Shown here: positions 9,751-59,952 of the stretch, in pieces
Layout of the letters: the number at the start of each line of letters is the position of its first letter
Position numbering within the stretch: the stretch's first letter is position 1
From: Schmidtea polychroa
Taxonomy: Eukaryota
Direction of reading: 5' to 3'
Length of the DNA stretch: 64,000 bases
Assembly (NCBI GenBank): GCA_044892525.1
Contig: CM097885.1
Location: 8,434,001-8,498,000, forward strand
Notes under the pieces: generated by a model
Told to the model about the DNA's origin: nothing
What the model saw: the letters and a program-made list of their open reading frames with translations, nothing else
The model's database searches: none
Made by a program: the position numbers and the translations under genes

Positions 9751-10237
9751 GTTTGACAATTCAAGCAAGATGTATCCAACTTAGCTATTAGCTATGGGAG
9801 CTATTCAGGTCAGAAACTACGTTAACTATAAAAAACTATTAATTATTTGGGGTACAACCTCATCGTCACTGATATTTACAACATCGTCGTCGTCACTAAT
9901 GGTTATTATTTCATCTTTTTTCATCTTTTTCTGGAAATGTATGAATGTCTTATGTTTCATATTGTTTCTAATAATTTATTGATTGTTTGCATTAATTGTT
10001 GATTTTGTAGTAATGTCATTGATTGTAGTGTTTTCGGTGGTTATGTTCCTATTGTTGTTGTTGTAGGTTTTGAATAAGCAATGCTAAAAATTGATTTTTA
10101 GAAGGCATATATTGAGAAATGATTATGGTGTTTATCACAAAACTCAGTATATGTTGATGCTTCATGATTTTGGCATATGGGACATAACATGTAGGTAACG
10201 CTATTATATTTGTGACCATAGTATTTTTCAATAATAA

Positions 10238-34925: not shown

Positions 34926-35534
34926 TTATATATTATAACTTCTAAATTTGCGCAGAATATCAGAATTGTAAAGATTATCATTTCTCCAATCATCTATAAC
35001 ATCTGCCACATTGAGAATACCTGCAAAATTTCATTTATTATAATTAATTAATGATTTTAAAAGCACTTGGATTAGATTCTAACGCCAAGTCGGCGCATTT
35101 TTTAGAAGCCCAATGCATTGTCTAATAAATCAAGTGAAATTTTAAACTAAATAAATACTTTACATGTCCAAATTTTTCCTTGTAACTTTTCCATTCTTCA
35201 AATGAGATATTAAGGTTACAATTCAACCACGAATTATATAATTCTCTTTGAATTGGATCACATAACACCATTTTAGCTGCTTGTAACTTTTGAAATCTCT
35301 CAACTACACAAATCATTTTGATTTAACTTATTTAAATTAATTTCACCTGCATTTTCATTTGAACATTTGTCAGGATGCCACTGAATAGCTTTAACTTTAT
35401 ACTCAGTTAATATTTGTTCCGGCTAAATTAAATTAACATATGTGGCAATGACAATCTATTTTTACTGAAGAATTTATGGTAACGCCAAGCAAATCATAAA
35501 AATTTTCAAAATGATATTTTTCAAAGTATGACAT
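34926..35534 (-). CDS. DNAJC12: J-domain protein, DNAJC12/JDP-like; 5 exons (35534-35466, 35422-35347, 35303-35164, 35121-35067, 35020-34926)
   Basis: Splicing four GT-AG introns (43, 43, 42, 46 nt) gives NFYDLLGV..PEQILTEYKVKAIQWHPDK..RFQKLQAAK..TMHWA..ILRKFRSYNI*. This has the HPD motif and DNAJC12-type MHW and LRKFRxYxI motifs. Confidence 0.9.
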
Positions 35535-38800: not shown

Positions 38801-41800
38801 GCGCTATCGTAATCTATACTAAATTATAAATATCTACACTTTCCTTTATTTAATTTATTTTTATATATTTATTTGTTTTAATGAATTGTTTATACTGTCA
38901 AATTATATTTTTGGGTCGGCTTAGAACGGACAATTGTAGGAGTATTGTAATTTATAAATTGTAATAAAGAATTGTAATTTATCAATATTTTCAAGCATTA
39001 TTAATGAACAAATAATAAACTTGACAATAAGATTGTTTTTATCCATAAACTGAACAAAAAAGTGAAGCAGTGCAAAATGACAAGTTTGTTCGAGACCCAC
39101 GAAAAAATAGAAAAGAGCGTAGTAGCATCAGTAATGCTATGGATGAATCAGAAGGTAATGCAGGTGATCTAGCAGATGATGATGCTCAATCTGAGGATAA
39201 TGATTACACAGAGAACCATTTTGGAGATGACATGATTCAAATGAGTTCTACAATGAACTTTATGTTTTGCAATAAATATATTAAATGTTTTTTTACTTTT
39301 CTTTCTTCTACTTATACACCAGTATATACGGTAATTTGTTTTTACCTAATTACATCCTGGGAATCCTCACTAAGTTTGTCATTAAACCATACCAATTTCC
39401 CCATATGAATATTATTTTTCAAATTTTCAATCAATTTTTATTTTATGCATTCTCCCAACATTTTACTAAAAATGAATCAGCATAATAAATATGCCAGGCC
39501 AAATACAGTAGGTGAGCTACTGTATGGGGTGTATAATCTTCATGTATGCCTTTTTAGGGATGCGGGCATAATTATCCATTTTCTTTTAACTTGTGTTATT
39601 GATAGAAGCCCCGATGATTTTCATATGTTTTTCTGGAGCCTTTAATCACTCTGTCTATCAGTTTGTTCTTTATGGACATGTACTCTTCATATCTGAATCC
39701 GAGTTTTCTAAATATATCGTTATTGCGTTTGTCCCATGTTCCGAGGGAGCATACCACGAATGTTTTTACTGTTGTATGTTCCCACTAACAAGTTCAAAGT
39801 AAAATACTCAATAAAAAGTTTGATTATGTCACCTATATAATAATTCTAAAATAATAATATTTCAAACCAATTTCTTTTCCCTTTCTTTCAGTTGATTGAT
39901 TTTTCTCAGTCACTCCATAACATGATTTAGAAATTTAATAAAAATTCAATTATGATAAGGTTGTGTTAAGAAAATCAATTTTTTTATTTCGTTTAAACGA
40001 ATTAATTTTTAATATTTTATAAATTTTATAAAAGTTTTCCTAATTATTTCAATATGATAGTGTGATTAATTATTATAAGAATGAAAGTTTGTATATTTTT
40101 GTTTTTTCTGTCCATATAATGCATATTTGTATAATTGATAAAATATATCAATTATTGATATAATAATTGATATATTATACCATATTAAACATAGTAAGGA
40201 TGATTGACAGACAAACTTTCATTCTCATAATGTAGATAATGTCTGAGGGATGTCGGAAGAACGAAGACAACATTTACAAGAAGCTGATAGAATTCATAAA
40301 TCAAATAATAATATTTAAACCCATATGAAATAGTGAAATAAATAAATGAAATGAAATTTAGGAAATGGAATAAATAATTTATTTTTATTGTTGATGTCAG
40401 AACTGTATCTACGCTTAGTGATTGTCTTTCAAATAAAGATATCCAATTAATACATCAAAGAACGCTGAGAAGAATGTAGGAAACAGAAAAGAATCGGAGG
40501 AAGTCGTTAGATGAAATAACTATGTTCAATTGGATTGTCGTTGCTTAACATAGTTAATGAATTTTGTTTGCAAGTTTGTATTGAATGGTGTATTAAAAAT
40601 TCTATTTCATTGATAAAATCTAAAAGTGATTCGCATGTTAAGAAATTATTGAACTTGGGAATTATTTGGTATTACTAAATTTAATGTTGAGAATACTGTG
40701 ATTAATATGAGTAAGATAGTTCTGTCTAATGAAGAGTTACGTATTTTAAAATATGGTCCTAACCATTGCATAAAAAATAGGATTGATGAAAATAAATTGT
40801 GTGCAAAAATTGAATGTGTTTATTATAATATATGTAAGTCAAATAAGGATTCTGATCTACTTACGGTAGAAAGTATGCTGAGTGCAAGTACTATTGAGTA
40901 TGTTGATAAAAATAAAAAACAGAATATTAAGGATTTTTTGGTACTGAAGAACTTAGCAAACAAAGATATTAATGTTTGTAAATTTGATAAAGGAAATGGA
41001 TTAGTGATTTTGGACCATGATGTTTATGTGAATAAATTAAATGAAGTACTCTCAGGTTCTCAATTTCTAAAAATTGATAAGTTTCGAAAAAAAGGAGATT
41101 GTCACCTCTAAAGGATGAAGTGATTTTGAATACTATGTTGTGTGATTTAGTTAAGAATAATCATATTGATGAAGAGGTAGCAAAACTAATTCATGCAAAA
41201 GGTTCACAACCAGCTAAATTATATGGACTTCCAAAAGTTCATCAAGACGGAGTTCCCATAAGACCTGTTTTATCTATGGTTGGAACAGCTCAGTATAAAA
41301 TAGCAAAGTATTTGGATGGATTATTAAAACTCTTAATAAAATCTGAGTTTAAATGTAAGGATAGTTTCGAAATTACATCATGTATAAGACAATTGAATAA
41401 AAATAATGTTAATGAGTATATGGTTTCGTTTGATGTATGTAGTTTATTTACTAATGTCCTGTTGAAAGAAACAATCGATTTATGTTGTGAATTATGGAAT
41501 GAAAATATTAGTGCGCATAATATGTGTGATGGATGTGCATTTAGGAAGCTTTTAGAGTTTGCAACTTCCAAAGTTAATTTTCTATTTAATAATGAATGGT
41601 ATGAACAAATTGATGGAGTTGCTATGGATTCGCCCTTAGCACCAACAATGGCTTCAATATTTCTGGCATGTTTAGAAAAGAAAATTGCTTCTTTTCAATA
41701 TGAAAAACCAATTGTGTATAAAAGGTATGTTGATGATATTTTTCTGATATTTAAAAATAATGAACATGTGGAACATTTTTTGGATTACATGAATGGATTG

Positions 41801-43276
41801 CATAAGAACATTGTATTCTCATGTGAAACTGAGAAGGATTCGTGCATAGCAGTAGTATGATGTGAGCTCCCCAGATCAGGAGCTCCCCGCGCCACATATA
41901 CCCCCTCCCCCCCCCCCCCCCGGGAAAAAAAAATTTTTTTTTTAATTTTTTGTTTTAATTAATTGGCCTGGCGGGCTCACACTTTTTTTCATCCCAAAAA
42001 TTAATGTTCCCACCAACGGATTTTATTGGACGATACCTCATCTTAAAGCTCAGTCCAAGACCTTTCGATTGATCCATAGAAGGTATCATCATCATTAATA
42101 TTGACAAAGTTATTAACAATCGATGACCACCATCTTTTCAACGTTAAATTATTATTATTATTCAAAATATTATTAATTGGCCGGGCGGGCTCACACTTTT
42201 TTTCATCCCAAAAATTAATGTTCCCATTATCCGAATTTATTAATCGATAGCTTATTTTGAAGCGTAGTCTGAGACCTTTCAATTGAGCCATAGAAGGTAT
42301 CATCATCATTAACATCGGCAAAGTTATTAAAGTTTTACCGAGACCATTTTTCAAGGTCATTTATTTTTCAAAATATTATTTTCAAGGTCAAGGTCAAGGT
42401 CATTTATTTTTTTTCAAGGTCATTTATTTTTTCAAGGTCATTTATTTTTTCAAGGTCATTTATTTTTTCAAGGTCATATTTTAAAATTTAAATGTACAGA
42501 GTTCCCGACAACGATAATTATTCAACGATAGCTCATTTTAAAGCGCAATGCAAGACCTTTCGATTGATTCATAGAAGGTATCATCATCATTATTATTGAC
42601 AAAGTTATTAACAATTGATGACCACCATCTTTTCAACGTTAAATTATTATTATTATTCAAAATATTATTAATTGGCCGGGCGGTGACATACTTTTTCTCA
42701 TCCCAAAAATTGATGTTCCCACCAACGGATTTTATTGGACGATACCTCATTTTAAAGCCCAATGCAAGACCTTTCGAATGAGCTAATGAAGGTATCATCA
42801 TCATTATTATTGACAAAGTTATTAACATTTTACCAAAAATCATTTTCAAGGTCATATAATTATTAATTGGCCTGGCGGGCCCCTACTCTTTTTCATCCCA
42901 AAAATTAATGTTCCCATTATCCGACCTTTCGAATGAGCCATAGAAGGTATCATCATCATTAATATTAACAAAGAGAATGACTCACCCAATGACTCACCCA
43001 ACGATGTCTAATATTTTTAGAACGATGACTCATCAAGGTCAAGGTCAAATTTTTAATAAAAGGTCAAGGTCATTTATTATTTCCAAGGTCATTTATTTTT
43101 TCAAGGTCATTTATTTTTTCAAGGTCATTTAATTTTCAAGGTCATTTATTATTTTCAAGGTCATTTATTTTTTCAAGGTCATTTATTTTTTCAAGGTCAT
43201 TTACTTTTCAAGGTCATTTAATTTTCAAGGTCATTTATTAAAATAATTATTATTTTCTAAGTTTTTAGTTTCTAAG

Positions 43277-43351
<75 letters not shown>

Positions 43352-46300
43352 CTATCCGACAAAATATTCTGTCCCCCTATGGGTATTGCTAGCAAGGGTA
43401 CTGGTCACATTCAACATGTCGCAAGGGTACTGTTTACAAAATTACTGGTAAAAATATTCAAGACAAAACTTTCTAAATTCTAAATATTATTCTTTAAATA
43501 TACACTAAAATTTATTAACACATTCACATTCATCATCTCCACAGTTCATAACATTTTCAACAACATGATCTATACAATCCCTATATACACACGGTTCAGT
43601 ATCCATAAATTCCTCCATAGGTTCATCAATTTCTTGAATGCTTTCCTCATCATTTTGAGTGTTTTCTTCATCTGTTTCATCAAATTTCGAATCTTCACTC
43701 TCTGCTACCCAGTCTATATTTAATGCGTTTGTAACAGATAATATATCCGCCATTTTCACACCAGATATTTCTGCTAATTTTTCCAATAAAAAGTTTATTA
43801 TAAATTCTAAATATTAAATAATTCGATAATTAACTAATCATATTAACCTTTTTCTGTAGTCATTATTAGTATTTTAAAACTATAGTATATATTTGTTTAT
43901 AGAAAATATAGAATATAAGCGAAAACAAATATGACTAAATACATTTATTAAATACAACATTAAAATAACTGTGAAAGTCTAGCAGACATAATTTTCCAAA
44001 TTGGAGAATACACATCATTATTATCAACTTTATATCCTTGGATTGTAATTGTTATATACCAATTTTCGTTTTCTTTGAAACTGATTTCATCAAAGGAATC
44101 ATAAAATTTTGCATATCGGTTGTTGAAAAATGCATTTTGATTGCATGATAGATTCGTATTCAACCTTTTGAAAACATCATCTATGGTTTTAATATCTAAC
44201 ATTGAAAGCGTGCCGGTTAAGCTGTTAATTCTACATTTACCAGTTTTGAAATATATTATTGGATATTTATTACTTCTATTGATAAGTTGTTGTGGTTTCC
44301 CTATTGGAAATACCATTTTTGATACATCAGTTTTTGCCCTGTAATTTATATTTGAAAGCATTTTAATGAAATAATTTTAAAAACTTTGATATATATAGGT
44401 ATTTAAAAACAGAGTTCATTTAAATTATCAATATAAACAATAATTATATAGTTTAAATTTAAAAAATGGAATTACGAAATGATGCAGTATACCAAATCGT
44501 TGGTCCAAGTGGTAGCGGGAAAACTTTATTTGTTTGTAAATTACTAAAATCAAATTTGTTTAAAACAAAATTCAACAATATTTATTGGCATAGGGGCGCC
44601 GACGAAGAACACGGATTGACGCAATCAAGTTTCTGTCAGTTGAAAAACATGAAAATAGTAAAGGGCTTTGATAAAAACTGGTCAAGTCGTTTGAAGAAAG
44701 ATGATGTCATCATTATCGATGATTTGTATCAAGAAGCCAATAAAGAAAAGGACTTTAATAATTTATTCACAAAAATCAGCAGACATGTTGGTGTAACAGT
44801 TATTTTCATAACACAAAATCTATTTCATCAAGGTGGTGCACATCGAACACGTAATTTAAATGTACAATATTTAGTTATTTTCAAGAATCCTAGAGATGCA
44901 ACTGTCATTGATTTTCTTGGACGACAAGCATACCCTAATAACCGTAATTTTCTTATCAGTGCATTTCAAGATGCCACGAAAATACCGCATGGGTATATAT
45001 TTCTCGATTTCACACAACAATGCCCTGATGATATACGGGTAAAAACAGATATTTTCAACCCAAAAGGTGCCATGGTATATAAACAAAGTTCAAAACAAAT
45101 TTGAAAACATATAAATCATGTTTTCAAAAACAAGGATATCGGGTAAAAAACAACCAAAAGTTCCACCAACAACTAGTTATACTCCATCTAAAGATCTTAT
45201 TACAGAAAATTTTCCTGCAATGAATCTTATTTCGAAAAATCCTAAACCTAAACCTAAAAGTAAAACCACTAAGAAAGTAAAAGTTGTTAAAAATCATCGG
45301 AGTTTCCCGTTTTTCAATACATTGTTAAAGGCACCAAGTATGAAAAGAAACAGTATTTTGCAATCATTTCCAAATTATGTTGTCGATGATTTACTCGATA
45401 TTATACTTAAAGTAGTCAAAGGCAAGATTAAAATCAGTAAATCTAAAAAGCAATTATTGAGTAAACATAGGAAACCTTTGCTATCATTAGTAAATAATAA
45501 AAATCGTCAACAAATGAGAAAAATTATATATAAACAACAAGGGGGATTTATCGGTGCATTGATACCTTTAGCAATATCATTATTAGGTGGAATAATAGGA
45601 AGTCGATCATAAACAATGGGTGCTAATCCTTCATTACCAGACATTAAATTTAATATTAAATCTTCTTGTTGTAATGGAGAAGATTTGGACGAACCCGGAA
45701 GACGAAGCCGGTTTTGGTGGAGTGGCAAAATTAAGGAAAAGAGTTCCGAATTCGAAAAAGGAAACTCAGAAGTGGTTATCAGACCAGCTTGCGTACAGTT
45801 TGAACAAACCAATGCAGAAACGATTCCCAACAAGAGCATATAAAACATATGGAATAAATGATTTATGGCAAATGGATTTGATGGAGATGATACCTTATTC
45901 GAAAATTAACAATGGGTATAAATATATTTTAACATGTATTGATGTATTCAGTCGGTTTGCCCGAGCAATACCCGTCAAGGCAAAATCTGCAGATGAAATG
46001 TCCAAAGCTGTTAATCATTTATTTAAAGATGGACATCCTAAAAACTTGCAAACTGATTTAGGTATTAATATTATTATTTTTATTATTATTATTATTATTT
46101 TAGGTAAAGAATTCTACAACAGTAAAGTCAAGCAAATCCTCAATAAAATGAAAATAAACCATTACTCAGTACATTCTCAATACAAAGCTGCTCATGTTGA
46201 AAGATTTAACCGAACTTTGAGAGATAGATTAAAGAAATTATTCGTGCATCAAGGTAATAAAAAATGGGTATTGATTTTACCAAAAATAATAACCAGTTAT

Positions 46301-49300
46301 AATCACTCATCACATCAAGGACTGAATGGATTAAGGCCGATTGATATCACGTCAAAAACAATCTATTCTAAAAAACCTGAAAAAATTACAAAACCGAAAT
46401 ATAAAGTAGGTGACCATGTTAGAATTAGTAAAATTAGTGCATCACCATTTATTAAAAATTTTGATACGAATTGGAGTGATGAAGTCTTTGTAATTTCAAA
46501 AATAAATACTAAACAGAATCCTGTAATGTATGTCATCAAAGACAATGATAACAATATTGTACAAGGAAAATTTTATGAGCAGGAATTACAAGTTATTCCT
46601 CCCCCAAAAGTATTTAGAATTCAGAAGATTTTGAAAACTAAAAATAAAGGCAAGGATAAACAATACTATGTCAAATGGCATGGTTATCAAAACCCATCAT
46701 GGATATCAGAAAAGGATCTAGTAAAGTGAATTTTTATACTATTTTACCAAGCAATAGTTGCCCGCTTATTCATCCAGATAATCAAGCCAGTAAATTCATG
46801 GTCAATCTCCAGAATCCGATTTCTTTAAATGGTGACTGGGAAGTTGCACTGCAAGATTTTACATTCGTGTACAATACATTCCCATTTTATAGTCAATGTA
46901 AGATTGATTTCAAAAGGAATGCTATGAAAACATGTAGTGGTATCTTTATTATCAGTAATTATGATAAAACATCATATTCCGAATCAAATATTAGATCAGC
47001 ACTGCTCTATGTTTTACAAGGATGGATTAAATATCAGTTGTGATTTTAAACCATTTACAATAACATTCGAATATATTGAAGATGCCAAACGATTGGGTTG
47101 CAATAAGTTGAAAAATGAAGTTATGGAAACAGATTACTTATTACGCTTTGATCTATTTGAAGCAAACAGTGTAATGAGAGAAGAAATCAAAATATCAGTG
47201 TCGTATAATAATGAAGTTGAAGAATCATTCACCTTCGCTGACGAATTATATATTGATAAACTTGATGTGTTACTTAAATATTTAAAGTATAATTGTTCAC
47301 ACATATTTAAAAGTTTGGACATTGTGAAAGATTTGTTATTTACCTTCAGTTTGAATGATGACATTTGCGAAGTTACATTTGATAAAAATTTGACAAATAC
47401 ACTTGGATTAGAGAAGCAGCAATATCGGGAAAAATCGGCTGGTATACGTAAACCAAGAATACTTGAACATCATCAACAAATGTTCATATATACTAATATT
47501 ATTGAGCCTATAATAGTTGGTGATTCCAGTGTTCCTCTATTGAAATCGGTGTGGATTGGAAAATATGAACATGATGAAGTTGTCAATATAAATATAGATA
47601 ATCCCATGTATTTACCAATTTCAAGCTCATGTATAAACAATATAGAAATAAATATTCGTGACGATAGTGGAAAACTTATAAACTTCCCAAAAGACTCAAA
47701 AACTCATTTGACACTACATTTTCGTAAAGTAGATGGCTAATTCCGATATTATTAGTATGTATAGTGATAGCCAATCTGGTGGTGAATTACCATATTTTAT
47801 TGGTAAACAGTATGGATCAGGTTGGTTAAAAACAATAGGGAGATTTGCACTTCCCATTCTTAAACGTATTGGTAGTTTTGGCATGAAAACTGCAAAAGAT
47901 GTGATTATGAATGAACAGAAAATATTACCATCCCTAAAAACAAATGCTTTAGCTGAGTTAGGGAAGGTTCTACCTGGAGTTGCTGGTATGTTTCAAAAAG
48001 ATACACCTCCAGTCCCAGCTCCAAAACGTAAAGGGCATGGAATATCGCGTATAAACAAACGAATGAAAGGACATGGAACTATATTTGCAAAATGATTTGT
48101 GGTAAATCCGAATTATGTATATTTGATAGACCGTCGCCCCAGGCAGTAATAGAATTTGGTGCCTTTGAGGAAGTTTTTCCTATGAATTCAATTACTGATA
48201 GTAGAAATGATATCGAGTTTTATATTAATGGTTCGCAAACTGAATATTTAGATTTGAACGATACTTTATTGACTGTTCAGATCAAGGTTGTAGATAAAGA
48301 TAGAAAGGTTTTGGATGCCAATGCGGATGTATTACCAAACAATTTCATGTTTCATACTCTGTTTAAAGATGCAGTGTTGGGATTTAATAATATCAAGATT
48401 GAGGGTGGAAATAATACATTCATTCACAAGGCTTTGATAGAAACTATTTTAAATTACAATTCAGATACTAAAAATACCTGTCTTACACCTATGGGTTATG
48501 CAGCAGCAGATGATGAAAGAAAAAAGTGGGTTAAAGGTTCAAAAGTATTCACTATGTGCTCATCATTACAACTTGATTTTATGGATCAACCGAAATATTT
48601 ACTACCGGGAGTTAATATACATATTAGACTGAAAAGATCTGATTCTGCATTGTCTCTTACTAGTGCAACTGGTGCACCAATATGTCAATTAGTTGATGCA
48701 AAATTATTGGTGAGAAGAGTTCGAGTAGACCCGTCAGTATTAGCTGGTCATCAATTGGGGCTTAATTCAAAACATGCAATTTATCCTTTAAAAACAAAGG
48801 AAATTGTACAATTTGCTATTGCTAAAGGTGCTTCATCATTCTATAAAGAACAAATATTTGGTGACAGAAGAATGCCTAATTTTATTCTGGTAACATTTCA
48901 AAGTGAAACGCAATATAATGGATCGTATACTGCTTCCAGCTCAAATTTCAAAAATTTTGGTGTTACTTCATTGACTTTATCGAAAAATACTGATTATAGA
49001 GAAACATATACTCAAGATTTCGAGAATGATAATTACTGTGCGACATATATGCAGAGTATTGTTAGAAATCTGGGTTATTTAGATAAAAACTTGAATTGCG
49101 GAATAACTCTTGAAGAATTTAAAAGCAAATACCCATTTTTCACATTTGTTTTAGCTCCCGATTTTGATTTAAATCAGAGTCAATTACCACAAAACGGGAA
49201 TTTACGACTGGATATAAAGTTTGCAAAGGCCATTACTGAACCAGTACATGTTATAATATATGGAGTATTTGAAAATGAAGTTCAAATTACTGCAAATAGA

Positions 49301-49757
49301 ACCGTGCTAGTATAAATGTATACAGAAACACCAAAAAGTTGTCATGGAGTAAGCTTTTCAATACTGTTTAATTTATTAAAGTAGTTCTGTTCAGGTCAAT
49401 AGAATTGGAAAACAGATATTGGGAAATGAATTTGTAGGAGTTTTTCCTCTCGATAAAATCCCATATTTGAGCAATAATCAAGCCATAATCGTCAATACTC
49501 AATCGTCTCATCTTGGTGGAGAACATTGGATTGCTATATATGTGAAACCTAGTAATATATTCGTGTTCGATCCTATGGGTTTCTATTACCCTGCTTTGTT
49601 GGTATCAAAACTACAAACAATGGGGAAACCTATTGTATATAATAAAACAATGTTTCAAAATCCCTTGACACAAACATGCGGTCAACATTGTTTAGCTTGG
49701 TTGTTGTATAAAAAATTTGATGATTAATAAATGTATTTTGTATCCTTTGTTGTTGTT

Positions 49758-49788
<31 letters not shown>

Positions 49789-52556
49789 TTATTTCTATTA
49801 TATGAGCTACTAACGAATTAAAATATTTTAATAATGTGATAAACTTTTATTTAATAAAGTATTTAATCCCCAAATGATTATTTTATTACATAAGAAACCG
49901 TGAATTGTATTTGGCAGAGTAATTATGATAAATTCCGATTTTAAATTTTGATTAAGTCCTTTAATATTAACAATTTATTATTAAATTTACTATTTTACAC
50001 TAAATATTTCAAAAACAAATATTCCAAAAGATAATTTAAGATACATTACTCTTTTTAATGAAAATGAGCACTGAAAGTTAAAAGGTACACTCGAAAACTC
50101 ACTCAAATATAACCGAAAGTTATAAAACAACAAAACTAAATTCGTTTAAATATTTTATAGCAATTGGTAGTTCTTATAATTTCCTAACTTTAATGAAGAT
50201 TCTTACCACCTGAGAATAATATTGTTAATTTATCTCGGTGTTATTAAAATTATCTTTCGACTTTACGCTTCTTACCATTTTAGAATAAGATTTTTTATCA
50301 AATTTGACTGATTCAATTTGATGGAGTTATTGTTAATTCGTTTTATTATATATACTCTGAGTTTATCTGACAAGATATTTTCTCCCTCTATGGGTACTGT
50401 TCACAATTGGTACTGCTCGTAAGGGTACTGGTCGTAAAGGTACTGGTGTGTTTTATTTAGGCAAATTTTTGGTTATTATTTAGCATTAAATTCATTGGTA
50501 ATTTTTTAGAGTTAGCGGGATTTTACTAACATTTTTTTTTGTGAATTTCATGTTAATTGAAAGAATATTTAAGGTTTAGTGTTAATTCTAAGATAAATTT
50601 AATTAATTTCTTGATAATTTGCTATATTTTATTAATTTTGATGATGATGATGACTTTGTAATGATAATTTGACTAAATAATTTTTTCATATATTTTTCTA
50701 AGAATATTTACACATTGATGAACTTTAAAATATTGAAAATCTAAAGTTGAAACAATCTAATTTTTTCACGGTGATGATATATTTAAAATCTACTTGAAAA
50801 TTATTGTAAAATATACCTAAATTTAGTTTGAAAGATATATCATGTTATAATGGTTATAATTATGATCAATCAATGAGATATTATCATCTCTAGTTAGGTA
50901 TTTGATGACACATGTGGTTAAATATTTATTTTAATGAATTTTGATCTTTTAGTGGACTCTTTGAATTTAGCTACTAAATTATTTCAATGGAAGAATGTCT
51001 GTGACAATTAAATAAAATTCATATTTTGAAGAATTTTCTATAGATTTTAAGATTTATTAAAGGGCACAAGTGGGTGAAATTATATTCGGTTGGATTTAGT
51101 GAAGGTTAAGATGGTAATATATACGATTTAAGGTGTTTTAAGGGGTAAAGATATTTGGTGAGGGATCGGTTAATGTTTTGAATATTTATATATTCTTATT
51201 GGTAAAATATCAAATTTTCAAGGGAAATAGTCAGCTATGAATAGTTCCTGTGAAATTATATCGTTTTAGAGGTTGTGATGAATGTTATTGCACAGTAATT
51301 TATGTTTCAGAACCAGTTTTTATTAATTATCCACGGTTTTATTAATGGGTAATGACTAATTTACTTGGTTTTGACAATGCAATATTTGAAATATTTAGAG
51401 ATAATTGATATCAAAGGTTATTGCTTTAAATTATTTTATTTAACATTTAAAGACGGACATTCATTATGAAGATAACGGTAACAAAAATATTGACTTAAAA
51501 GAGTTAGACATCGACAACTAAAGAAAATTTAACTTTCATGAAGGAAATTTATGATTTTAATTATATTTCCTGAAATTAAATAGGTTGAATATCAGTTAAT
51601 CTATTGAAGGAATATTGTTATCGGATGGATAAATGATATTTTGCTAAATTACCTTTGCTAAATATTATTTTAAATGACTAAAAATAACAAAATTAAGCAA
51701 TATTCATAAATTTATCGCACAAAATGTCCATGTTTTGGTTACTCAAACATCTTAAATTTCTCGCAAAGATATATTACGTCTAATGATCATCTAATTAAAT
51801 TAGAAAATAATTGTTACTTTATAATATATATTTCTAAATAATAGGCCCCTTAATTGGATAAATGATAACCATATTTCTATTATGACTCCTTTAATTATTT
51901 TTGCCTCAAACAAATTTACTCCAAATGATAAAGAATTTAAAATTATCAATGAATAATGACCATGTTTTTCTCATATTATTAACTATTGTAACGAACATTA
52001 GATGAATAAATTAATTTTTGCTTTAAATGACTACAAAGTTAACCAATAAATTAGTCGCTCGACATAAGTGTAAAGTTACATTTAAAATATTCACGAATTT
52101 CTGATCATCTCACTAAATTACCTAAGAATTTCTAAATGATTAATATAGCCTTGTGACATGTTGAATGTGACCAGTACCCTTGCTAGCAATACCCATAGGG
52201 GGACAGAATATTTTGTCGGATAGACTAGGAGTATATACACCCATGTTAAACAAGGTATGTGTATATAGAATGTATGTATAAAATTATCGCTCCATATTGA
52301 CAACTTCCTGTAAAGGCAAACACAGAATACTGCAAACATAATAATACTCTACCCCATAACTTAGTGTGTAAAAATTATTTAAGGTTTTTTCACTAATAAT
52401 AATAATAATTATAATAATAATAATAATAATAATAATAAAGTTTAATGGATTGTATATATGTGTAAAAAATATTTGAGGTTTTCACGAATATTGTTACAAA
52501 TAATTGTTAATGGGTTGTGTGTGTGTGTGTAAAAATATTTTAGGTTTTTAATATTG

Positions 52557-52621
<65 letters not shown>

Positions 52622-52855
52622 GTTTAATGGGTTGTATATGCGTGTAAAAAATATTTGAGGTTTTCACGAATATTGATAATAATAATGGTTTATGAGTGTT
52701 TTTATGTTTTTGACTAATATTTGCAATAATAATAATAATAAGTTTAATGAGTTGTATGTGTGTGTAAAAATATTTTAGGTTTTTAATATTGATAATAATA
52801 ATAATAATGGTTAATGGGTTGTGTGTGTAAACCATATTTTAGATTTTTCATTAAC

Positions 52856-52903
<48 letters not shown>

Positions 52904-53417
52904 TCCCGCGCGTGTTAATACTTTAAAAGAAAATATTGAAAATTTAAAAAATAATAATATTTATGCAAAGCATGTGCAATAATTATGTCTTTGTTAATTA
53001 AGTAAACTTTAGTATCAAAATACGTTTTTAAAATATATTTAAATTTTAAAATACCGCAACGTAATATATTTTGTTCTACCCCTTCATTGATTTAAGTTGG
53101 TCGGAATTTAATAATAATTATATTATACCCTTTGAGACATGTTGAATGTGAGAAGTACCCTTGTAACCATTACCTATGTAAGCAGTACACATAGGGGGGC
53201 AGAATATCTTGTCGGATAAACTCTGACTATATATGATAATAATAATAATAACTCCCGTGCGTGTTAAAATAAATAATAATACTTTGAACTTGTATTTGAA
53301 AATAATTTACGACATGTTGAATGTGAGTAGTACCCTTGTGACAATTACCCATGTGAGTAGTGCCCTTGTGAGCAATACCCTTAGGGGGACAAAATATCTT
53401 GTCGGATAGACTAAGAG

Positions 53418-53470
<53 letters not shown>

Positions 53471-54077
53471 TTAATATTAATAATAATAATAAATGACCTT
53501 GAAAAATAAATGACCTTGAAAAAATAATATTTTGAAAAAATAATATTTTGAAAAAATAAATGACCTTGAAAAATTTAATGATCACTTAATTAAAACAAAA
53601 AATTAAATTAAAAAATAACCTTGAAAAAAAAAAGACCTTTATGAGTCACGCGACCTTGAAAAAATAAATGACCTTGAAAAATAAATGACCTTGGGAATGA
53701 CCTTGAAAAAATAAATGACCTTGATGAAGCAGATGAAGAAAACACTCAAGATGATGAGGAAAGCATTCAAGAAATTGATGAACCTATGGAGGAATTTACG
53801 GATACTGAACCGTGTGTATATAGGGATTGTATAGATCATGTTGTTGAAAATGTTATGAACTGTGGAGATGATGAATGTGAATGTGTTAATAAATTTTAGT
53901 GTATATTTAAAGAATAATATTTAGAATTTAGAAAGTTTTGTCTTGAATATTTTTACCAGTAATTTTGTGAACAGTACCCATGTTACTTGTTGAGTGTGAG
54001 TAGTACCTTTGTGAGCAATACCCATAGGGGGACAGAATATCTTGTCGGATAGACTAGGAGTATATAATAATTATAAT

Positions 54078-54120
<43 letters not shown>

Positions 54121-57100
54121 CTTAGAAACTAAAAACTTAAAAAAAAAAAATAATAATAAATGACCTTGAAAAAATAAATGACCTTGAAAATAATAAATGA
54201 CCTTGACCTTTTATTTAAAAATTAAATGACCTTGAAAAAATAAATGACCTTGAAAATAATAAATGACCTTGACCTTTTATTAAAAATTTGACCTTGACCT
54301 TGATGAGTCATCGTTCTAAAAATATGATGAGACAACGAATGAGTCATTGTCTTTGTTCTAAAAATGTGATGAGTCATTGTATGATAGAAATCTATATCTC
54401 ATTAGAAAGGTCTTGGACTGAGCTTTAAGATGAGGTATCGTCCAATAAAATCCGTTGGTGGGAACATCAATTTTTGGGATGAAAAAAAGTAGGGGCCCTC
54501 CCGGCCACTTAATAATATTTTGACAAATAATAATAATTTAACTTTGAAAAGATGGTGGTCATCAATTGTTAATAACTTTGTCAATAATAATGATGATGAT
54601 ACCTTCTATGAATCAATCGAAAGGTCTTGCATTGGGCTTTAAAATGAGCTATCGTTGAATAATTATCGTTGTACATTTAAATTTTAAAATATGACCTTGA
54701 AAAAATAAATGACCTTGAAAAAATAAATGACCTTGACCTTGATATTGAAAATAATATTTTGAAAAATAAATGACCTTGAAAAATGGTCTCGGTAAAACTT
54801 TAATAACTTTGCCGATGTTAATGATGATGATACCTTCTATGGCTCAATTGAAAGGTCTTAGACTACGCTTCAAAATAAGCTATCGATTAATAAATTCGGA
54901 TAATGGGAACATTAATTTTGGGATGAGAAAAAGTATGTCCCCGCCCGGCCAATTAATAATATTTTGAATAATAATAATAATTTAACGTTGAAAAGATGGT
55001 GGTCATCAATTGTTAATAACTTTGTCAATATTAATGATGATGATACCTTCTATGGATCAATCGAAAGGTCTTGGACTGAGCTTTAAGATGAGGTATCGTC
55101 CAATAAAATCCGTTGGTGGGAACATTAATTTTTGGGATGAAAAAAAAGTGTGAGCCCGCCAGGCCAATTAATAATATTTTGGAAAATAATAATAATTTAA
55201 CGTTGAAAAGATGGTGGTCATCAATTGTTAATAACATTAAAACTATTAAAGATATATATGATACCTATAGCTCATTCGAAAGGTCTTGGACTGGGCTTTA
55301 AGATGAGGTATCGGTCAATAAAATCTGTTAACGAGAACATTAATTTTTGGGATGAAAAAAAGTGTGAGCCCGCCAGGCCAATTAATTAAAACAAAAAATT
55401 AAAAAAAAAAATTTTTTTTCCCGGGGGGGGGGAGGGGGTATATGTGGCGCGGGGAGCTCCTGGTCTGGGGAGCTCCAATCCTACTACTCATAGCATTTCT
55501 TGGCTTGTTAATTAAACAATATTAATGTCCAATATTAAAGATCATAATAAAGTCTGTATGAGAGAATTAGGAATGTCGGATTTTAAAATCTTATCAAAAA
55601 ATATTTTTTCAATAAAAATTTGAGAACTAGAAGAAATTTTGGTGCAACAAAAACAGCATATTGACAACATATAATAGACATACATGGTAGATAGATATGG
55701 TGGTCAAGAAATAAAGTTATTTATTTCTTAATTGCACGATATTATTCGAGTTCAAAGTTTGAGATAAGTTATAAAGAACAATGAACTTATAATTTTTACA
55801 CAATTACATGAAACTGTTAAGATTTTGTTAAGAGTTGAATACGAAAAATAAGTCAAAACTAACTGATTTATAATTTTAACCTTAATGCAGATATTGACCA
55901 CAAATATTTTTTATTGATTTAAAATAATATATACGGAATTTTAATTAGCTAAATTAACTTAAATTTGTTTTAATTTAAAATGAGCTTTTAGCAACTTAGA
56001 AAAATAATGATTGCAAACTAGTAATTTTTATCGATTTGTTTAAGTTAGAATAAAGGAAATACCTATCTAATACGGTATTTTTATAGTTATATAGTATAGT
56101 TATATACAGGGCCGGCTTTAGTTGGAAGCGGTGGATGCAAAGCATCGGGGCGCCTCTCGGAAAGGGCGCTAAACAATTTAGAATTTTAGTTTCTTTTTAA
56201 TATTTAACAAAAAAACCATTAACAAATTTTTTTTTAACAAGAATTTTTTTTTTTTTTTTAAATAAAATTTCCTTGAAAAACTACTGGCCTACTAGTTTTC
56301 GAAGTGTTTAAGAATTGTTTAATTTCGCAAAACAAAATAAATTATACATGCATAAATTTATTTTGAAACGGCCTGCTATATTCGGTTTAGTTATTTCGAT
56401 TAAAAAAATTAATGCTAAAAAAAATTATTTTAAAAGTCTACCAGTTCTATTCAGTTTTCAATCAGTTCAGTTGTTATTTGGTAAACTTTTTTCGCTAATA
56501 AAAAAAAATTTAATATTAAAATTTTAATAGTAAAATAAAAAAGTGTTCAGTACAGTTTAATAGTAAAAAAGTGTTTTGTTTCAGTACATTAGTTATTTTG
56601 CGGAATTGAATCATTGTACGGTGGTAGGTATTATTTAATTATTTTTATCTTTACTTCTAAAATTTATATTTTTTTAATTAAAAAAATTTTTATTAGCTTA
56701 CCTATATCATAAAATATGAATTCAAAGACAAAATTATCCGGGTGTGAAAATCGAAAACGAAAGGCGAAGAGAGAGTTGGAGGAACAAAAAAATCAGGGAA
56801 GCCTTAACCAATATTTAAAAAAAGCAAATTTGACAATACCTACAATAACGTTAACGGATGATCAGATTATTCCAGAGGATAGCACAAATGGTGAAGTTAG
56901 AAATAATGCCACTAATGAGACACAATCTATAAATTTACAAACAGAAATAACATCTTCATCTAACAAAGAGCTTCAAACCATACATTTAACTGAAACTATA
57001 AGTAATAGTGCTGATTTTCATTCAATTGATCCCGCAACTTGGCCTAAATTTATTAATGATAAAATTAGAAAAATTATTATTGAGCAAGGACCAATGCAAA

Positions 57101-59952
57101 TAAGGAAAGAAGTTTATCCCCGTGATGATGATGGACGAAGTTTTACTAATTATTATTACAATCGTAAATTACCTAATAATGAAATTATACCAAGATCATG
57201 GTTAGTTTATTCAAGTTCAGCAAACCGTGTTTTCTGTTTTTGTTGTAAATTGTTTATAAATCAAATAGAAGGAAACCAGCATTTGATTATAAATGGTTTT
57301 AGTTGCTGGAGAAATTTGTCAAAAACACTTGCAGCTCATGAAGTTAGTACATTACATGTTAATTGTTTTTTAAAGTGGACTCAATTAAAAAAGAAAATGA
57401 ACAACTTAACTACAATAGATGCTGAACTCGTAAAAGTATACGCAGTTGAAAAGAAACATTGGTACGCTGTTTTGGAGAGAATTGTCGAAATCATAAAATA
57501 TCTTGCCAGACAATGGCTGTCTCTGCGTGGCTCGTCAGATACTATCTATGAAAAAAATAACGGTAACTTTTTAAAATTTGTAGAACTTTTTTCTAAATTT
57601 GACATAGTAATAGCAAATCATTTAGCAAAGATACAAAAAAAGGAGACACAAACAGTTCATTATTTAGGCAAAACTATACAAAATGAAATAATATCCTTGA
57701 TCTCTTCGAAAATTTTGCAAAATATTATTCAAATGATAATTAATGCCAAATATTTTTCTCTAATATTAGATTGCACTCCTGATATTAGTCATAACGAACA
57801 AATGATATTTATAGCCAGATTTGTCAATAAAGATGAAGATAATGAAGTTGCAATAAGCGAACATTTTTTGGGATTTTTAAAAGTATCTGACTCCACAGGA
57901 AAAGGTTTAGCAACTTATCTTATTGACAACATTAAAGATTTAGGTTTGAATATTAATGATCTACGTGGACAAGGTTACGATAATGGCGCAAATATGCATG
58001 GGAAAAATAATGGTGTCCAAAAACGTATTTTAAATTTGAATTCTCGTACACTTAATTTAGTAGTGAATGATGCAGCCAAAATTAACACAGAATCATTTAG
58101 TTTCTTTTCCACTATTCAAACAATTTATAATTTCTTAAGCGCTTCAACAAAACGATGGGAGTTCTTAAAAAAAATACTAAAATTACAGTAAAACCTTTGT
58201 CAGCCACCAGGTGGGAATCAAGAGTCGATGCCCTTCGTCCACTTAGGTTTGAAATAGCTGAAATTTTAGATGCTTTAGTTGACATTTATGAAAACCTAGA
58301 AATAGATAATAATACAAAGCATGAAGCTAAGGCTGTGGCTTTCAAAATAAAAGAGTATGAATTTATATGTTCAGTGGTTATTTGGTACGATGTTTTAAGT
58401 AAAGTTAACGTTGTTAGTAAACTGCTCCAAAATCCAAATCAAAACTTAAATGTTTCTTCAGTTGCGTTAAATAGTCTTATTAAATTTATTGAAGAATATA
58501 GATCCGATGAAAATTTTAGTCTTATTCTTCAAACGGCAGAAAATATAGCAGCTGATTTAGAAATACCTGCGAAATTCAAAGATAATACGTTACGAAGAAG
58601 AAAGAAAAAAATTTTTGGTTATGAATCTGTAGACGAAACGCCAGTTGATCCGATACTTAAATATAAAATATCATTTTTTCTGCCAATTTTAGATATTACT
58701 ATCAATTCTTTAAAAGAAAGGTTTAATCTTTTCACAAAATATAGTGAAAAATTTGAATTTATACATAATATAAAAGAAATTAACAAAATGGATGATAATA
58801 CATTAAAAAAACATTGTTCTGATTTAGAAATAATGCTAACCGATGGCGAGAAAAAAGATATATCTGCAACAGAATTATTTAATGAAATAAAAATAGCAAA
58901 GGAATTTTTGAAAGACTTTGAAAACCCACTAAACATCTTGCAATATATATATAAAAATCTACTGGATTCCATTTTTCCCAATTTTGTAATTGCTATTAAA
59001 ATATTTTTAACTTTACCAGTTTCAGTTGCTAGCGGAGAACGATCTTTTTCGAAGCTTAAACTAATTAAAAATTATTTAAGATCAACAATTTCACAAGAAA
59101 GATTAGTTGGTTTAGCAATGATATCGATTGAAAGTGATATATGCGACAAATTAGATATACATAATTTAATTGATGAATTTGCCAGTTTAAAAGCTAGAAA
59201 AGTAAATATCTAGAATAATAGTTTTGTCAATTTTTATACAAAATATATGTATGTTATGTAATTTTTGTATATTATAATATTGTTTCAATAAAATAAAAAA
59301 ATATATAAACAAAATAAAACCTGTTTTTCACTTGGAAAAGAATTATTATTAATTTTTTAATGTTTTTATTACAAATTTAATATTGCCAATTAAATTACGT
59401 TAATTCCAAAAAACCAATAAAATAAATGGGCGTCTAAAATGAGTTTCGCATCGGGGCGCTACTAATGCTAGAGCCGGCGCTGGTTATATATAGCTAGAAT
59501 AATTTTAAACCATTTTCAAATATAAAATGTACACAATAGTTCCACATTTGAAACTTTAATTCTTCTAGGATTATTTTAGCTGTGCAGGATGCTCATATTT
59601 TCTTAACAAACCTTCTAGTTCGAATTGCGTTTTAGTTGATGTGATAAGACAATTGGGAGGAGTTCCATTTGTTAGAACTACTGTTCCACAATCTATGATG
59701 AGGTTCGGTTTGCTTGTTGTGAGAACAGACTTTTATTTATATCAGCTTTCTTTCATCCAACCCAATTGATGGGATTACACTAAATCCAATCGATATTTCA
59801 AAGTCTCCGGGTGGTAGCAGTTCGGGTGAAGCAGCTTTAATAGGTGGGCATGGATCGATTGTTGGAATTGGGACTGACATGGGAGGGTCGATTCGTATAC
59901 CGGCTGCGTTTTGTGGTATTGTTGGGCTGAAACCGACTCATGGACGTCTGAG
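35858..59952 (+). CDS. FAAH: Fatty-acid amide hydrolase-like amidase; exons ~35858-36061, 36101-36211, 36255-36308, 37928-37999, 59569-59702, 59746-59952; 3' exons not found in window
   Basis: N-terminal TM helix; [23 protein letters not shown] (catalytic Lys); [54 protein letters not shown] (amidase signature). Phases are consistent across GT-AG introns. The first, in-frame intron is less certain. Confidence 0.88.
36640..37900 (+). repeat. Near-pure AT degenerate tandem satellite in FAAH intron
   Basis: The block ataatataattgtaatagaaataaacataaataaataataataatacagataaaaa recurs at roughly 200-bp spacing. Confidence 0.75.
38447..39331 (+). mobile_element. Non-autonomous pogo/Tc2-like DNA transposon
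   Basis: TA-flanked TIRs CCGTATATACT / AGTATATACGG, with a second left end at 38621. A C-terminal transposase remnant [11 protein letters not shown] plus an acidic tail lies at ~39120-39230. Confidence 0.7.
40698..41850 (+). pseudogene. Penelope-like retroelement reverse transcriptase (frameshifted), split by the Polinton and continuing at 55495-55524
   Basis: [59 protein letters not shown]. Removing the Polinton and one TSD copy restores [18 protein letters not shown]. Confidence 0.9.
41851..43683 (+). repeat. Left inverted arm (~1.83 kb)
   Basis: Reverse-complement match to 53721-55488, comprising the terminal GC block, ~214-bp units, TCAAGGTCA arrays, (ATT)n, a ~90-bp motif and the 3' end of the acidic ORF. 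Confidence 0.9.
43505..43863 (-). CDS. Small acidic protein with Cys-containing C-terminus; 2 exons (43863-43848, 43806-43505)
   Basis: ATG at 43863 plus a 41-nt GT-AG intron (43847-43807) gives in-frame [21 protein letters not shown]...[10 protein letters not shown]...CGDDECEC. Confidence 0.6.
43960..44361 (-). CDS. 133-aa protein; TBP-like N-terminus, possibly OB-fold/SSB-like C-terminus
   Basis: The ATG-initiated ORF diverges from the ATPase gene. LSNINYRA and [11 protein letters not shown] recall TBP NIV and LIFxSGKxV strands. The functional call is tentative. Confidence 0.5.
   Translation of the reverse strand: MLSNINYRAKTDVSKMVFPIGKPQQLINRSNKYPIIYFKTGKCRINSLTGTLSMLDIKTIDDVFKRLNTNLSCNQNAFFNNRYAKFYDSFDEISFKENENWYITITIQGYKVDNNDVYSPIWKIMSARLSQLF
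44466..45104 (+). CDS. A32/FtsK-HerA-like genome packaging ATPase
   Basis: Walker A GPSGSGKT, Walker [36 protein letters not shown] and PHGYIFLD. Confidence 0.93.
   Translation: MELRNDAVYQIVGPSGSGKTLFVCKLLKSNLFKTKFNNIYWHRGADEEHGLTQSSFCQLKNMKIVKGFDKNWSSRLKKDDVIIIDDLYQEANKEKDFNNLFTKISRHVGVTVIFITQNLFHQGGAHRTRNLNVQYLVIFKNPRDATVIDFLGRQAYPNNRNFLISAFQDATKIPHGYIFLDFTQQCPDDIRVKTDIFNPKGAMVYKQSSKQI
45118..45612 (+). CDS. Basic core-protein precursor with C-terminal amphipathic peptide
   Basis: Lys-rich, ending [25 protein letters not shown] as is typical of Polinton small structural ORFs. TATA-like tatataaa at ~45076. Confidence 0.75.
   Translation: MFSKTRISGKKQPKVPPTTSYTPSKDLITENFPAMNLISKNPKPKPKSKTTKKVKVVKNHRSFPFFNTLLKAPSMKRNSILQSFPNYVVDDLLDIILKVVKGKIKISKSKKQLLSKHRKPLLSLVNNKNRQQMRKIIYKQQGGFIGALIPLAISLLGGIIGSRS
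45616..45843 (+). CDS. Putative overprinted N-myristoylated small protein (75 aa)
   Basis: aaacaATGG start 3 nt after the upstream stop; MGANPS (MGxxxS) followed by SSCC. It overlaps the integrase 5' end in another frame. Confidence 0.5.
   Translation: MGANPSLPDIKFNIKSSCCNGEDLDEPGRRSRFWWSGKIKEKSSEFEKGNSEVVIRPACVQFEQTNAETIPNKSI
45674..46729 (+). CDS. Retroviral-like (rve) integrase with C-terminal chromodomain; 42-nt intron at 46062-46103
   Basis: DDE triad WQMDL / QTDLGKEF (after splicing) / [27 protein letters not shown]; chromodomain [12 protein letters not shown]. First ATG (MEKIW) is at 45674. Confidence 0.93.
   Translation: MEKIWTNPEDEAGFGGVAKLRKRVPNSKKETQKWLSDQLAYSLNKPMQKRFPTRAYKTYGINDLWQMDLMEMIPYSKINNGYKYILTCIDVFSRFARAIPVKAKSADEMSKAVNHLFKDGHPKNLQTDLGINIIIFIIIIIILGKEFYNSKVKQILNKMKINHYSVHSQYKAAHVERFNRTLRDRLKKLFVHQGNKKWVLILPKIITSYNHSSHQGLNGLRPIDITSKTIYSKKPEKITKPKYKVGDHVRISKISASPFIKNFDTNWSDEVFVISKINTKQNPVMYVIKDNDNNIVQGKFYEQELQVIPPPKVFRIQKILKTKNKGKDKQYYVKWHGYQNPSWISEKDLVK
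46726..47740 (+). pseudogene. Minor capsid (penton-like) protein; GTG start and one frameshift near 46940-47040
   Basis: The N-terminal [26 protein letters not shown] and C-terminal [44 protein letters not shown] are in different frames. Confidence 0.8.
47733..48095 (+). CDS. Core/membrane-active precursor (pVII/cupiennin-like) upstream of MCP
   Basis: [30 protein letters not shown], with a basic tail containing KGHG repeats. Confidence 0.8.
   Translation: MANSDIISMYSDSQSGGELPYFIGKQYGSGWLKTIGRFALPILKRIGSFGMKTAKDVIMNEQKILPSLKTNALAELGKVLPGVAGMFQKDTPPVPAPKRKGHGISRINKRMKGHGTIFAK
48092..49315 (+). CDS. Double-jelly-roll major capsid protein (Polinton PY/hexon-like), 407 aa
   Basis: [73 protein letters not shown]. 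The start overlaps the upstream stop (ATGA). Confidence 0.92.
   Translation: MICGKSELCIFDRPSPQAVIEFGAFEEVFPMNSITDSRNDIEFYINGSQTEYLDLNDTLLTVQIKVVDKDRKVLDANADVLPNNFMFHTLFKDAVLGFNNIKIEGGNNTFIHKALIETILNYNSDTKNTCLTPMGYAAADDERKKWVKGSKVFTMCSSLQLDFMDQPKYLLPGVNIHIRLKRSDSALSLTSATGAPICQLVDAKLLVRRVRVDPSVLAGHQLGLNSKHAIYPLKTKEIVQFAIAKGASSFYKEQIFGDRRMPNFILVTFQSETQYNGSYTASSSNFKNFGVTSLTLSKNTDYRETYTQDFENDNYCATYMQSIVRNLGYLDKNLNCGITLEEFKSKYPFFTFVLAPDFDLNQSQLPQNGNLRLDIKFAKAITEPVHVIIYGVFENEVQITANRTVLV
49316..49727 (+). CDS. Adenain-like cysteine protease; 2 exons (49316-49348, 49395-49727)
   Basis: FVGVFP; VNT..GEHWIA (His); FDPMG (Asp); FQ..TCGQHC (Gln/Cys). ATG follows the MCP stop directly, a 46-nt GTAAGC...TTCAG intron restores the frame, and AATAAA overlaps the stop. 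Confidence 0.85.
52340..52860 (+). repeat. Degenerate tandem repeat with (AAT)n spacers inside the element
   Basis: Recurring ttaatgggttgt...tgtgtaaaaatattt(g/t)aggtttt, about 6 copies. Confidence 0.7.
53721..55488 (-). repeat. Right inverted arm (~1.77 kb)
   Basis: Mirror image of the left arm, with substitutions and a different number of ~214-bp units. Confidence 0.9.
56107..59482 (+). mobile_element. hAT transposon (Tip100/ZMYM1-like), 3,376 bp
   Basis: TIRs CAGGGCCGGC / GCCGGCGCTG, with an exact 8-bp TSD GTTATATA (56099-56106, 59483-59490). gcatcggggcgc occurs near both ends. Confidence 0.93.
56716..59213 (+). pseudogene. hAT transposase with TTF zinc finger, frameshifted near 58165
   Basis: [58 protein letters not shown]. 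It is split into two overlapping ORFs at an A-run, and the CxxH segment is missing. Confidence 0.9.

Follow-up and report, generated by a model that had tools for sequence, protein, structure and literature searches.

Does an integrated Maverick depend on the splicing machinery of its host before its own genes can work? The question is raised by a stretch of 64,000 nucleotides (nt) from Schmidtea polychroa (assembly GCA_044892525.1, contig CM097885.1, positions 8,434,001 to 8,498,000), called the window below, which holds a Maverick/Polinton element of 13,638 nt (41851..55488). The original prediction had picked out three short GT..AG segments in the integrase gene, the protease gene and a gene for an acidic protein of this element, and had read them as host-sized spliceosomal introns that reflect long nuclear co-adaptation. 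The three segments are likely to be genuine spliceosomal introns of different ages, and their splicing would be obligatory before the genes work. At all three sites the GT..AG ends join open exons, and the ends are conserved while the interior drifts: strongly so in the protease, through length changes that are nearly always whole ATT units in the integrase, and across two subfamilies in the acidic gene. It is from this conservation that we infer splicing at all three sites.

The predicted protease intron

The protease site was read by its position after the capsid stop in every locus covering it, which gives an unbiased reading. The pattern ATG-RA|GT...AG follows the capsid stop in 14/14 loci of Maverick family A, to which the window element belongs, in 3/3 loci each of families B and C of the same genome, and in 7/9 loci from metagenomes (capsid identity 51-56%). 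The metagenome contig L084 ends just past its ATG-AA-GT donor, with the acceptor side missing, and L114, which carries an uninterrupted protease gene, is the most distant locus (capsid identity 42%) and a long-branch outlier in the capsid tree. The intron position is common to nine lineages with capsid identities of 51-100%, and the lengths in one representative of each are 36, 37, 37, 37, 37, 39, 39, 40 and 47 nt; since these lengths cover all three frames, no single reading frame passes through the intron across the clade. An ATG-RA directly ahead of the donor and an in-frame, stop-free acceptor are present in 9/9 representatives. The intron ends are kept in 8-9 of the nine and interior positions in as few as 3-4, although the nine were chosen by their donor motif, so that donor conservation among them is partly built in and counts for less than the reading by position.

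The intron falls within the second codon. Without splicing, the message of all nine representatives would read M-E/K-stop (stop at codon 3), that is, start, one residue, stop, so the protease would come only from spliced RNA. The predicted N-termini, M-X-[ST]-x-[QE], align with those of the uninterrupted homologues P0122, P0124 and P0134, and the start predicted in the window has the same spacing. Exon 2 shows strong purifying selection, with a ratio of nonsynonymous to synonymous substitution (dN/dS) of 0.05-0.07 against subfamily A2. No spliced-type start was found among the cluster members of the closest protease match. Separately, the predicted N-termini of four other homologues (P0125, P0126, P0129 and P0138) resemble read-through of the same start-proximal intron, with Y-E-V-S/C or M-K-Y-V before the conserved start. 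Taken together, the protease segment is very probably a real intron and, judged by its distribution over three families of this genome and their metagenome relatives, an old, clade-wide one.

The boundaries originally proposed for this intron hold in part. The donor at 49349 stands, but the relatives place the acceptor at 49384 rather than 49394 and the ATG at 49344-49346 rather than 49316. Among 38 family-A matches, in which some copies are counted twice, ATG 49316 and acceptor 49394 are in frame in only 13 (subfamily A1), two of which lack that AG, and out of frame in 25 (A2). The 46-nt segment 49349-49394 was therefore rejected as the conserved form, though it is possible as an A1-only isoform. 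The donor reads GTAAGC in the window and GTAAGT in 38/38 other family-A matches.

The predicted integrase and acidic-gene introns

The integrase segment (46062-46103) is, as first described, 42 nt long, bounded by GT..AG, in frame and free of stops, and lies beside the second catalytic Asp, splitting a Gly codon two residues past D129. Of the 23 in-frame GT..AG stretches of 30-50 nt that the open reading frame (ORF) contains, it has the highest AT content. The insert-free motif D-x-G-x-E-F is found in all 120 homologues compared (the best 120 of 1,567), and the insert is absent from 37/37 readable metagenome loci (54 fetched) and 7/7 loci of families B and C, and present in 14/14 family-A loci. 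A search with an insert-free query gave no insert-free family-A copy among the 119 candidates scored, of 13,567. Family A, comprising subfamilies A1 and A2, has a tree support of 100/99 and is sister to B; because it nests among insert-free lineages, the sequence comparison identifies the integrase intron as a young gain on the family-A stem. Conservation of intron position among related elements is thus seen for the protease, in nine lineages, but for the integrase only within family A, and the idea of long nuclear co-adaptation divides in the same way: the old protease intron fits a long dependence on the host nucleus, whereas the integrase intron is recent.

The tract between donor and acceptor is flanked by an 8-nt direct repeat that holds AG|GT, and several intron-free relatives have AG|GT at the same site. 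Exact matches to the donor-side pattern number 324 for A1 and 949 for A2, at least 1,273 copies in the genome, and a reversed control gave 0. An assembly artefact was considered for the tract and rejected in view of 30/30 identical top copies and more than 1,270 matches. Lengths were read at the first 30 DNA-picked places of each subfamily, with the GT side fixed by the search pattern. The A1 tract, which carries interruptions, mostly stays at 42 nt (24/30 copies, range 42-75), and the A2 insert measures 60-174 nt, with a median of 96, in the 27/30 copies that were readable (3 unreadable). An insert of 303 nt occurs in another sample, and the overall range is 30-303 nt. Of the 57 readable DNA-picked copies, 56 retain the GT and TTAG ends, around an interior whose length differs several-fold from copy to copy. 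Three of the 27 A2 inserts have lengths not divisible by three, and two of them keep GT..AG and stop-free flanks. The integrase exons show a dN/dS of 0.13-0.14 (0.12-0.15 for each exon) between A1 and A2, both insert-bearing and separated by a synonymous divergence (dS) of ~0.33; this is far below neutral and points to purifying selection.

The tract might instead be translated, with the enzyme tolerating or using a poly-isoleucine loop beside the catalytic Asp. It is in frame and stop-free in 30/30 A1 and 24/27 A2 copies, as this account would have it, but such frame-keeping follows from the 3-nt unit, and a single substitution cannot turn ATT into a stop. A structure model leaves residues 130-148 unstructured, with a predicted local distance difference test (pLDDT) score below 50, around a partly folded core; this carries little weight, the other alignment rows being gapped there. 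The D-x-G-x-E-F spacing is invariant in the 120 homologues, and the commoner subfamily would gain ~20-58 residues, up to ~100. A meaningful read-through enzyme with 14 mostly hydrophobic residues, as originally envisaged, is not supported: the segment is an ATT microsatellite slipping by whole units, and the A2 addition would be mostly Ile. An enzyme that carried between 10 and 100 additional Ile in a loop of its active site that is otherwise invariant is implausible; splicing is the simplest account, and translation of the tract is highly improbable.

A second alternative takes the tract as an unspliced microsatellite that has killed the family-A integrase, the elements being moved by the integrases of B or C, with the protease and acidic introns real. 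The genome does contain intron-free integrases, the tract is little more than a repeat, and ATT arrays with flanking direct repeats occur elsewhere (11/225 arrays against a shuffled mean of 0.6, although two of these are the integrase insert itself and several lie inside element repeats). The capsid and protease exons have about half the dN/dS of the integrase, whose intron has, as read from sequence, a non-consensus donor and no evident branch signal; both points weigh against splicing here, as does the lack of a spliced joint among the contig joints discussed below. Against a dead integrase stand the constraint on both exons over a dS of ~0.33 with the tract in both subfamilies, the near-complete retention of the splice-site ends despite the changing interior, and the want of any insert-free family-A copy among the candidates scored. 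A dead integrase is therefore improbable, and removal of the segment by splicing, which accounts most simply for such a tract between exons under selection, is probable.

As to origin, slippage at a duplication, break repair and a retroelement tail are each possible sources of the tract. A search upstream of the ATT arrays gave no shared retroelement 3′ end, which speaks neither for nor decisively against a retrotransposon tail. Elsewhere, at L156, L166 and L183, ATT arrays lie between direct repeats of 7-15 nt and hint at recurrent insertion in this genome. In Drosophila, such repeats are found as often beside old introns as beside new ones (PMC3443670), so the 8-nt repeat is no proof of origin.

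In the acidic ORF, the 41-nt candidate on the minus strand (43847-43807), as first noticed, follows a first exon of 16 nt. Exon and intron, with the ATG and the donor flank, are kept in 44 regular-expression matches across A1 and A2, the intron measuring 41 nt in 40/44 and 45 or 50 nt in four. The unspliced reading stops after codon 6 in 43/44 matches, the donor is lost in 1/30 copies read by position, coding-type conservation starts at the acceptor, and A2 has no internal Met near the intron that might otherwise start the protein. The acidic protein itself gave no Pfam match and no usable Atlas match. On the evidence of two related subfamilies only, the segment is in good probability an intron.

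Probable splicing of the element's messages

Host introns offer a size control. Neighbouring host introns had been put at 42-46 nt, and those predicted in the DnaJ-like and amidase genes of the window agree (Table 1): DnaJ profile positions 15-36 and then 41-63 fall on successive exons, and Amidase profile positions 65-105 and then 110-174 on the exons around the amidase intron. A rough sample from myosin genes, which includes some false calls, gave a median of ~48 nt, with 28/36 candidates at 41-58 nt. The introns of the element thus resemble host introns but are as short as the shortest of them or shorter, those of 41-42 nt being low in the range and that of 36 nt below most of the sample.

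In longer copies of the element, the polymerase also appears to be affected. A long polymerase-like ORF starts without an ATG, at an AG|G that is conserved in A1, A2, B and the copy L162. Upstream of it lie 3-5 open exons; the introns predicted between them are in phase 1 and measure 34-51 nt, apart from one of 571-1,213 nt, and CCAAT- and TATA-like motifs, read by eye, stand ahead of these 5′ exons. The long ORF has a weak endonuclease VII match and no Pfam or NCBIfam polymerase match. It carries putative exonuclease and polymerase-type motifs and is a candidate for a protein-primed family-B DNA polymerase. A divergent 'Beta' polymerase class, whose identity to the Pfam type is below 30%, has been described (PMC8502044). 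The polymerase 5′ end of the longer copies is predicted to be multi-exon.

Between protease and polymerase in L075, L063, L067, L154, L149, L158, L068 and L070, the predicted multi-exon polymerase 5′ part contains acidic or Asn-rich exons; an apparent exon duplication is seen in L158, and the long last intron is filled with repeats. In the metagenome relative L098, the polymerase ORF also seems to be preceded, upstream of 12568 (-), by short GT..AG introns, which are in other phases.

Several observations speak against obligatory splicing. The protease intron, at 36-40 nt in most lineages, is shorter than most sampled host introns. The polymerase exon chain was complete in 8/10 copies walked and failed in L069 and L098, and one short polymerase intron call in A1 is probably misplaced. 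The protein homologues had been called as contiguous ORFs, so that intron-bearing relatives are selected against in such a set. The contigs examined came from four runs presumed to be RNA and from a fifth of unknown kind (X5-X7 and X9-X14 lying outside the set). No spliced joint appeared at the three sites among the listed 15 of 207 and 15 of 44 contig joints, to which one X4 contig joint at the integrase repeat does not belong. Contigs of X1-X3 join protease-intron sequence to exon 2, and one X4 contig joins the acidic intron to exon 2. With more than 1,200 genomic copies and a guessed library type, these contig data are weak and neither show nor exclude splicing.

The same unspliced contigs count in favour of a regulated gate, in which the introns would be real but their removal set by tissue or cell state so as to switch integrase activity and capsid maturation. 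The immediate stops met by unspliced protease and acidic messages would suit such a gate, as would the full GTAAGT protease donor of nearly all lineages, set against degenerate host donors in the window. However, most introns can be expected to bring in a stop when they are retained, and the integrase intron is young and nearly featureless, leaving little room for regulatory sites. A regulated gate is therefore unlikely, and splicing as a constitutive, obligatory step rather than a switch is the most likely reading of the sequences.

Under obligatory splicing, host machinery would transcribe the integrated element in the nucleus, and its messages would need to be spliced before use. In the integrase, the 8-nt duplication probably gave donor and acceptor at once; with both splice sites supplied, the ATT insertion would have been tolerated and could spread with family A. 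The tract would then have been lengthened and shortened by slippage, A1 remaining near the host short-intron size. The acidic gene and the polymerase are predicted to share a 5′-proximal intron pattern. The protease intron may also aid expression or hinder small-RNA silencing, by extension from Caenorhabditis elegans, in which introns hinder such silencing (PMC5554785). More tentatively, and with less than even probability, the integrase intron may have been caught soon after birth: a bare (ATT)n within a duplicated AG|GT, rescued by the spliceosome and working as an intron over a ten-fold length range. In a clade with ancient 5′ introns in protease and polymerase, host splicing could then decide whether the element stays quiet in the genome or goes on to replicate or mature its particles, and could make it easier for the transcripts to pass as host mRNA.

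The element and its place among known systems

The host genome is 781 Mb, AT-rich, with short introns and myosin genes, and contains three Maverick families, A (A1 and A2), B and C. No relatives came from a search of viral contigs. The window element, of subfamily A1, ends in AGTAGT, is flanked on both sides by the 6-bp target-site duplication CATAGC, and has terminal inverted repeat arms that are 76-98% complementary (Table 1). A retroviral-like (rve) integrase is present, with PF00665 over the cut-off and D, D and E motifs, and both PF04665 (packaging ATPase) and PF00770 (adenovirus-type protease) score over the cut-off. The major capsid protein gave no sequence match in Pfam, PDB or NCBIfam. 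Its structure model has a predicted template modelling score (pTM) of 0.77, a Foldseek search with this model matched capsid proteins of adomaviruses, virophages and large DNA viruses with E-values down to 1e-22, and PF21738 occurs in 15% of the members of its Atlas cluster; the protein is predicted to be of double jelly-roll type. The window copy is a defective family member: no polymerase match lies within 41851-55488, the TATA-binding protein (TBP)-like region carries a deletion, and a frameshift lies near 46970. An intron at the frameshift was ruled out, other copies reading there in one frame.

Table 1. Predicted features of the Maverick element and its surroundings (window coordinates)
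Feature	Position	Strand	Remarks
Host DnaJ-like gene	35021..35534	-	predicted introns 43, 43, 42, 46 nt; size control
Left target-site duplication CATAGC	41845..41850	+	6-bp flanking repeat
Left terminal inverted repeat	41851..43683		~1.8 kb, internal tandem repeats; inner end approximate
Acidic ORF, predicted exon 2	43505..43806	-	
Acidic ORF, predicted phase-1 intron	43807..43847	-	41 nt
Acidic ORF, predicted exon 1	43848..43863	-	ATG, 5 codons plus 1 nt (16 nt)
TATA-binding-protein-like ORF	43960..44376	-	deletion merges two tandem ORFs of other copies
Packaging ATPase, Pox_A32 type	44466..45104	+	PF04665, E-value 2e-7; no intron seen
Basic ORF, function unassigned	45118..45612	+	conserved in relatives
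Integrase, predicted exon 1	45671..46061	+	catalytic D69, D129; PF00665, E-value 7e-8; foamy-virus integrase alignment
Integrase, predicted phase-1 intron	46062..46103	+	GT-(ATT)n-TTAG, 42 nt; 8-nt direct repeats at both sides
Integrase, predicted exon 2	46104..46729	+	catalytic E, chromodomain-like end
Putative minor capsid gene	46726..47740	+	named from position only; frameshift near 46970 in window copy
Small conserved ORF ahead of capsid gene	47733..48095	+	
Major capsid protein	48092..49315	+	predicted double jelly-roll fold; no intron seen
Protease, predicted exon 1	49344..49348	+	ATG plus 2 nt
Protease, predicted phase-2 intron	49349..49384	+	36 nt; in-frame tandem acceptor at 49381
Protease, predicted exon 2	49385..49727	+	His, Asp, Cys catalytic motifs; PF00770, E-value 1e-6
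Right terminal inverted repeat	53721..55488		contains second partial acidic ORF copy (53721-53899)
Right target-site duplication CATAGC	55489..55494	+	6-bp flanking repeat
Host amidase gene intron	59703..59745	+	predicted 43 nt; size control

A TBP-family gene belongs to the clade, with PF00352 over the cut-off (E-values 2e-14 to 2e-18) in L078:1026-1484, L086:2393-2866 and L162:5349-5816, and family A has a second, more divergent TBP-like ORF in tandem. The literature search, by title or the start of the abstract, gave no TBP in Polintons.

Further features of the window were observed. A 75-codon ORF at 45617-45843 (+), which opens with Met-Gly, overlaps the integrase start in another frame, and family C has a similar frame. 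The stretch 49800-53600 stands in place of the polymerase, shows no match to the same part of one longer copy, and repeats pieces of the terminal repeat near 52146, 53147 and 53337. A reverse-transcriptase ORF (PF00078) at 40653-41860 (+) is broken by the Maverick insertion at 41851. At 8254-10295 (-) lies a broken Maverick polymerase remnant, ~44% identical to family A, which opens at the same AG|G acceptor-like site. Genes for hAT-type transposases occur at 56713-59213 (+), where the gene occupies two overlapping frames and precedes the host amidase exons, and at 14993-16927 (-).

In the paper listings and passages covered, inherited spliceosomal introns in Maverick core genes were not found, and an earlier annotation is possible. 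The accessible parts of PMC10748475, PMC8504770 and bioRxiv 10.64898/2026.10.13.758929 held nothing relevant, and PMC12220804 concerns group I introns. Annotation of Mavericks, and the decision whether a copy is 'intact', have taken it for granted that their genes lack introns, and a clade with spliced protease and polymerase starts would escape or mislead ORF finders. Such introns would also mean that host machinery transcribes the element in the nucleus. The integrase intron would represent a rare dated gain, with intron-free sister families in the same genome and more than 1,270 copies forming a length series (30-303 nt); with this copy series, intron birth and minimal splicing signals become testable.

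The closest systems are the animal Mavericks (PMC8097293; bioRxiv 10.1101/2022.07.12.499685) and adintoviruses (PMC8502044), which share with the present elements the 6-bp duplication, long inverted repeats, retroviral-type integrase, ATPase, adenovirus-type protease, a capsid protein of (here predicted) double jelly-roll type and, in longer copies, a candidate family-B polymerase. All three papers describe the core genes of intact elements as intron-free. No introns were reported in the genes of 134 intact vertebrate Mavericks, with reference to Kapitonov and Jurka (PMC8097293), and in the C. plicata Maverick the core genes are intronless and the cargo genes have introns (bioRxiv 10.1101/2022.07.12.499685). 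In contrast to these intronless core genes, the protease, integrase, polymerase and an accessory gene are here predicted to be spliced, and a TBP-like gene is added. Spliceosomal introns inside Polinton-like elements are shared with the dinoflagellate eupolintoviral/Polinton-like elements, in which introners have been described (PMC12166617). Those are copies of intron-generating transposons, mostly gained after integration, whereas in the present clade the protease intron has passed down with the element through different families and hosts, the integrase intron has become fixed in a family that is spreading, and no transposon body is visible. In the neointrons of Daphnia and in related cases where insertion, tandem duplication or break repair creates an intron at an AGGT that has been duplicated (PMC3443670, PMC4202315), a short direct repeat likewise supplies both splice sites and leaves the coding sequence unchanged; here, the integrase of a mobile element carries as filler, in its active-site loop, a microsatellite that is (ATT)n almost throughout, in more than 1,270 copies and over a ten-fold length range. 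Finally, the DDE integrase-type gene of Ginger1 is broken by 1-4 mostly GT-AG introns (PMC2836005), so that introns in the integrase-type gene of a DNA transposon are common to both systems; Gingers, however, move by cut-and-paste and lack a capsid, protease and polymerase.

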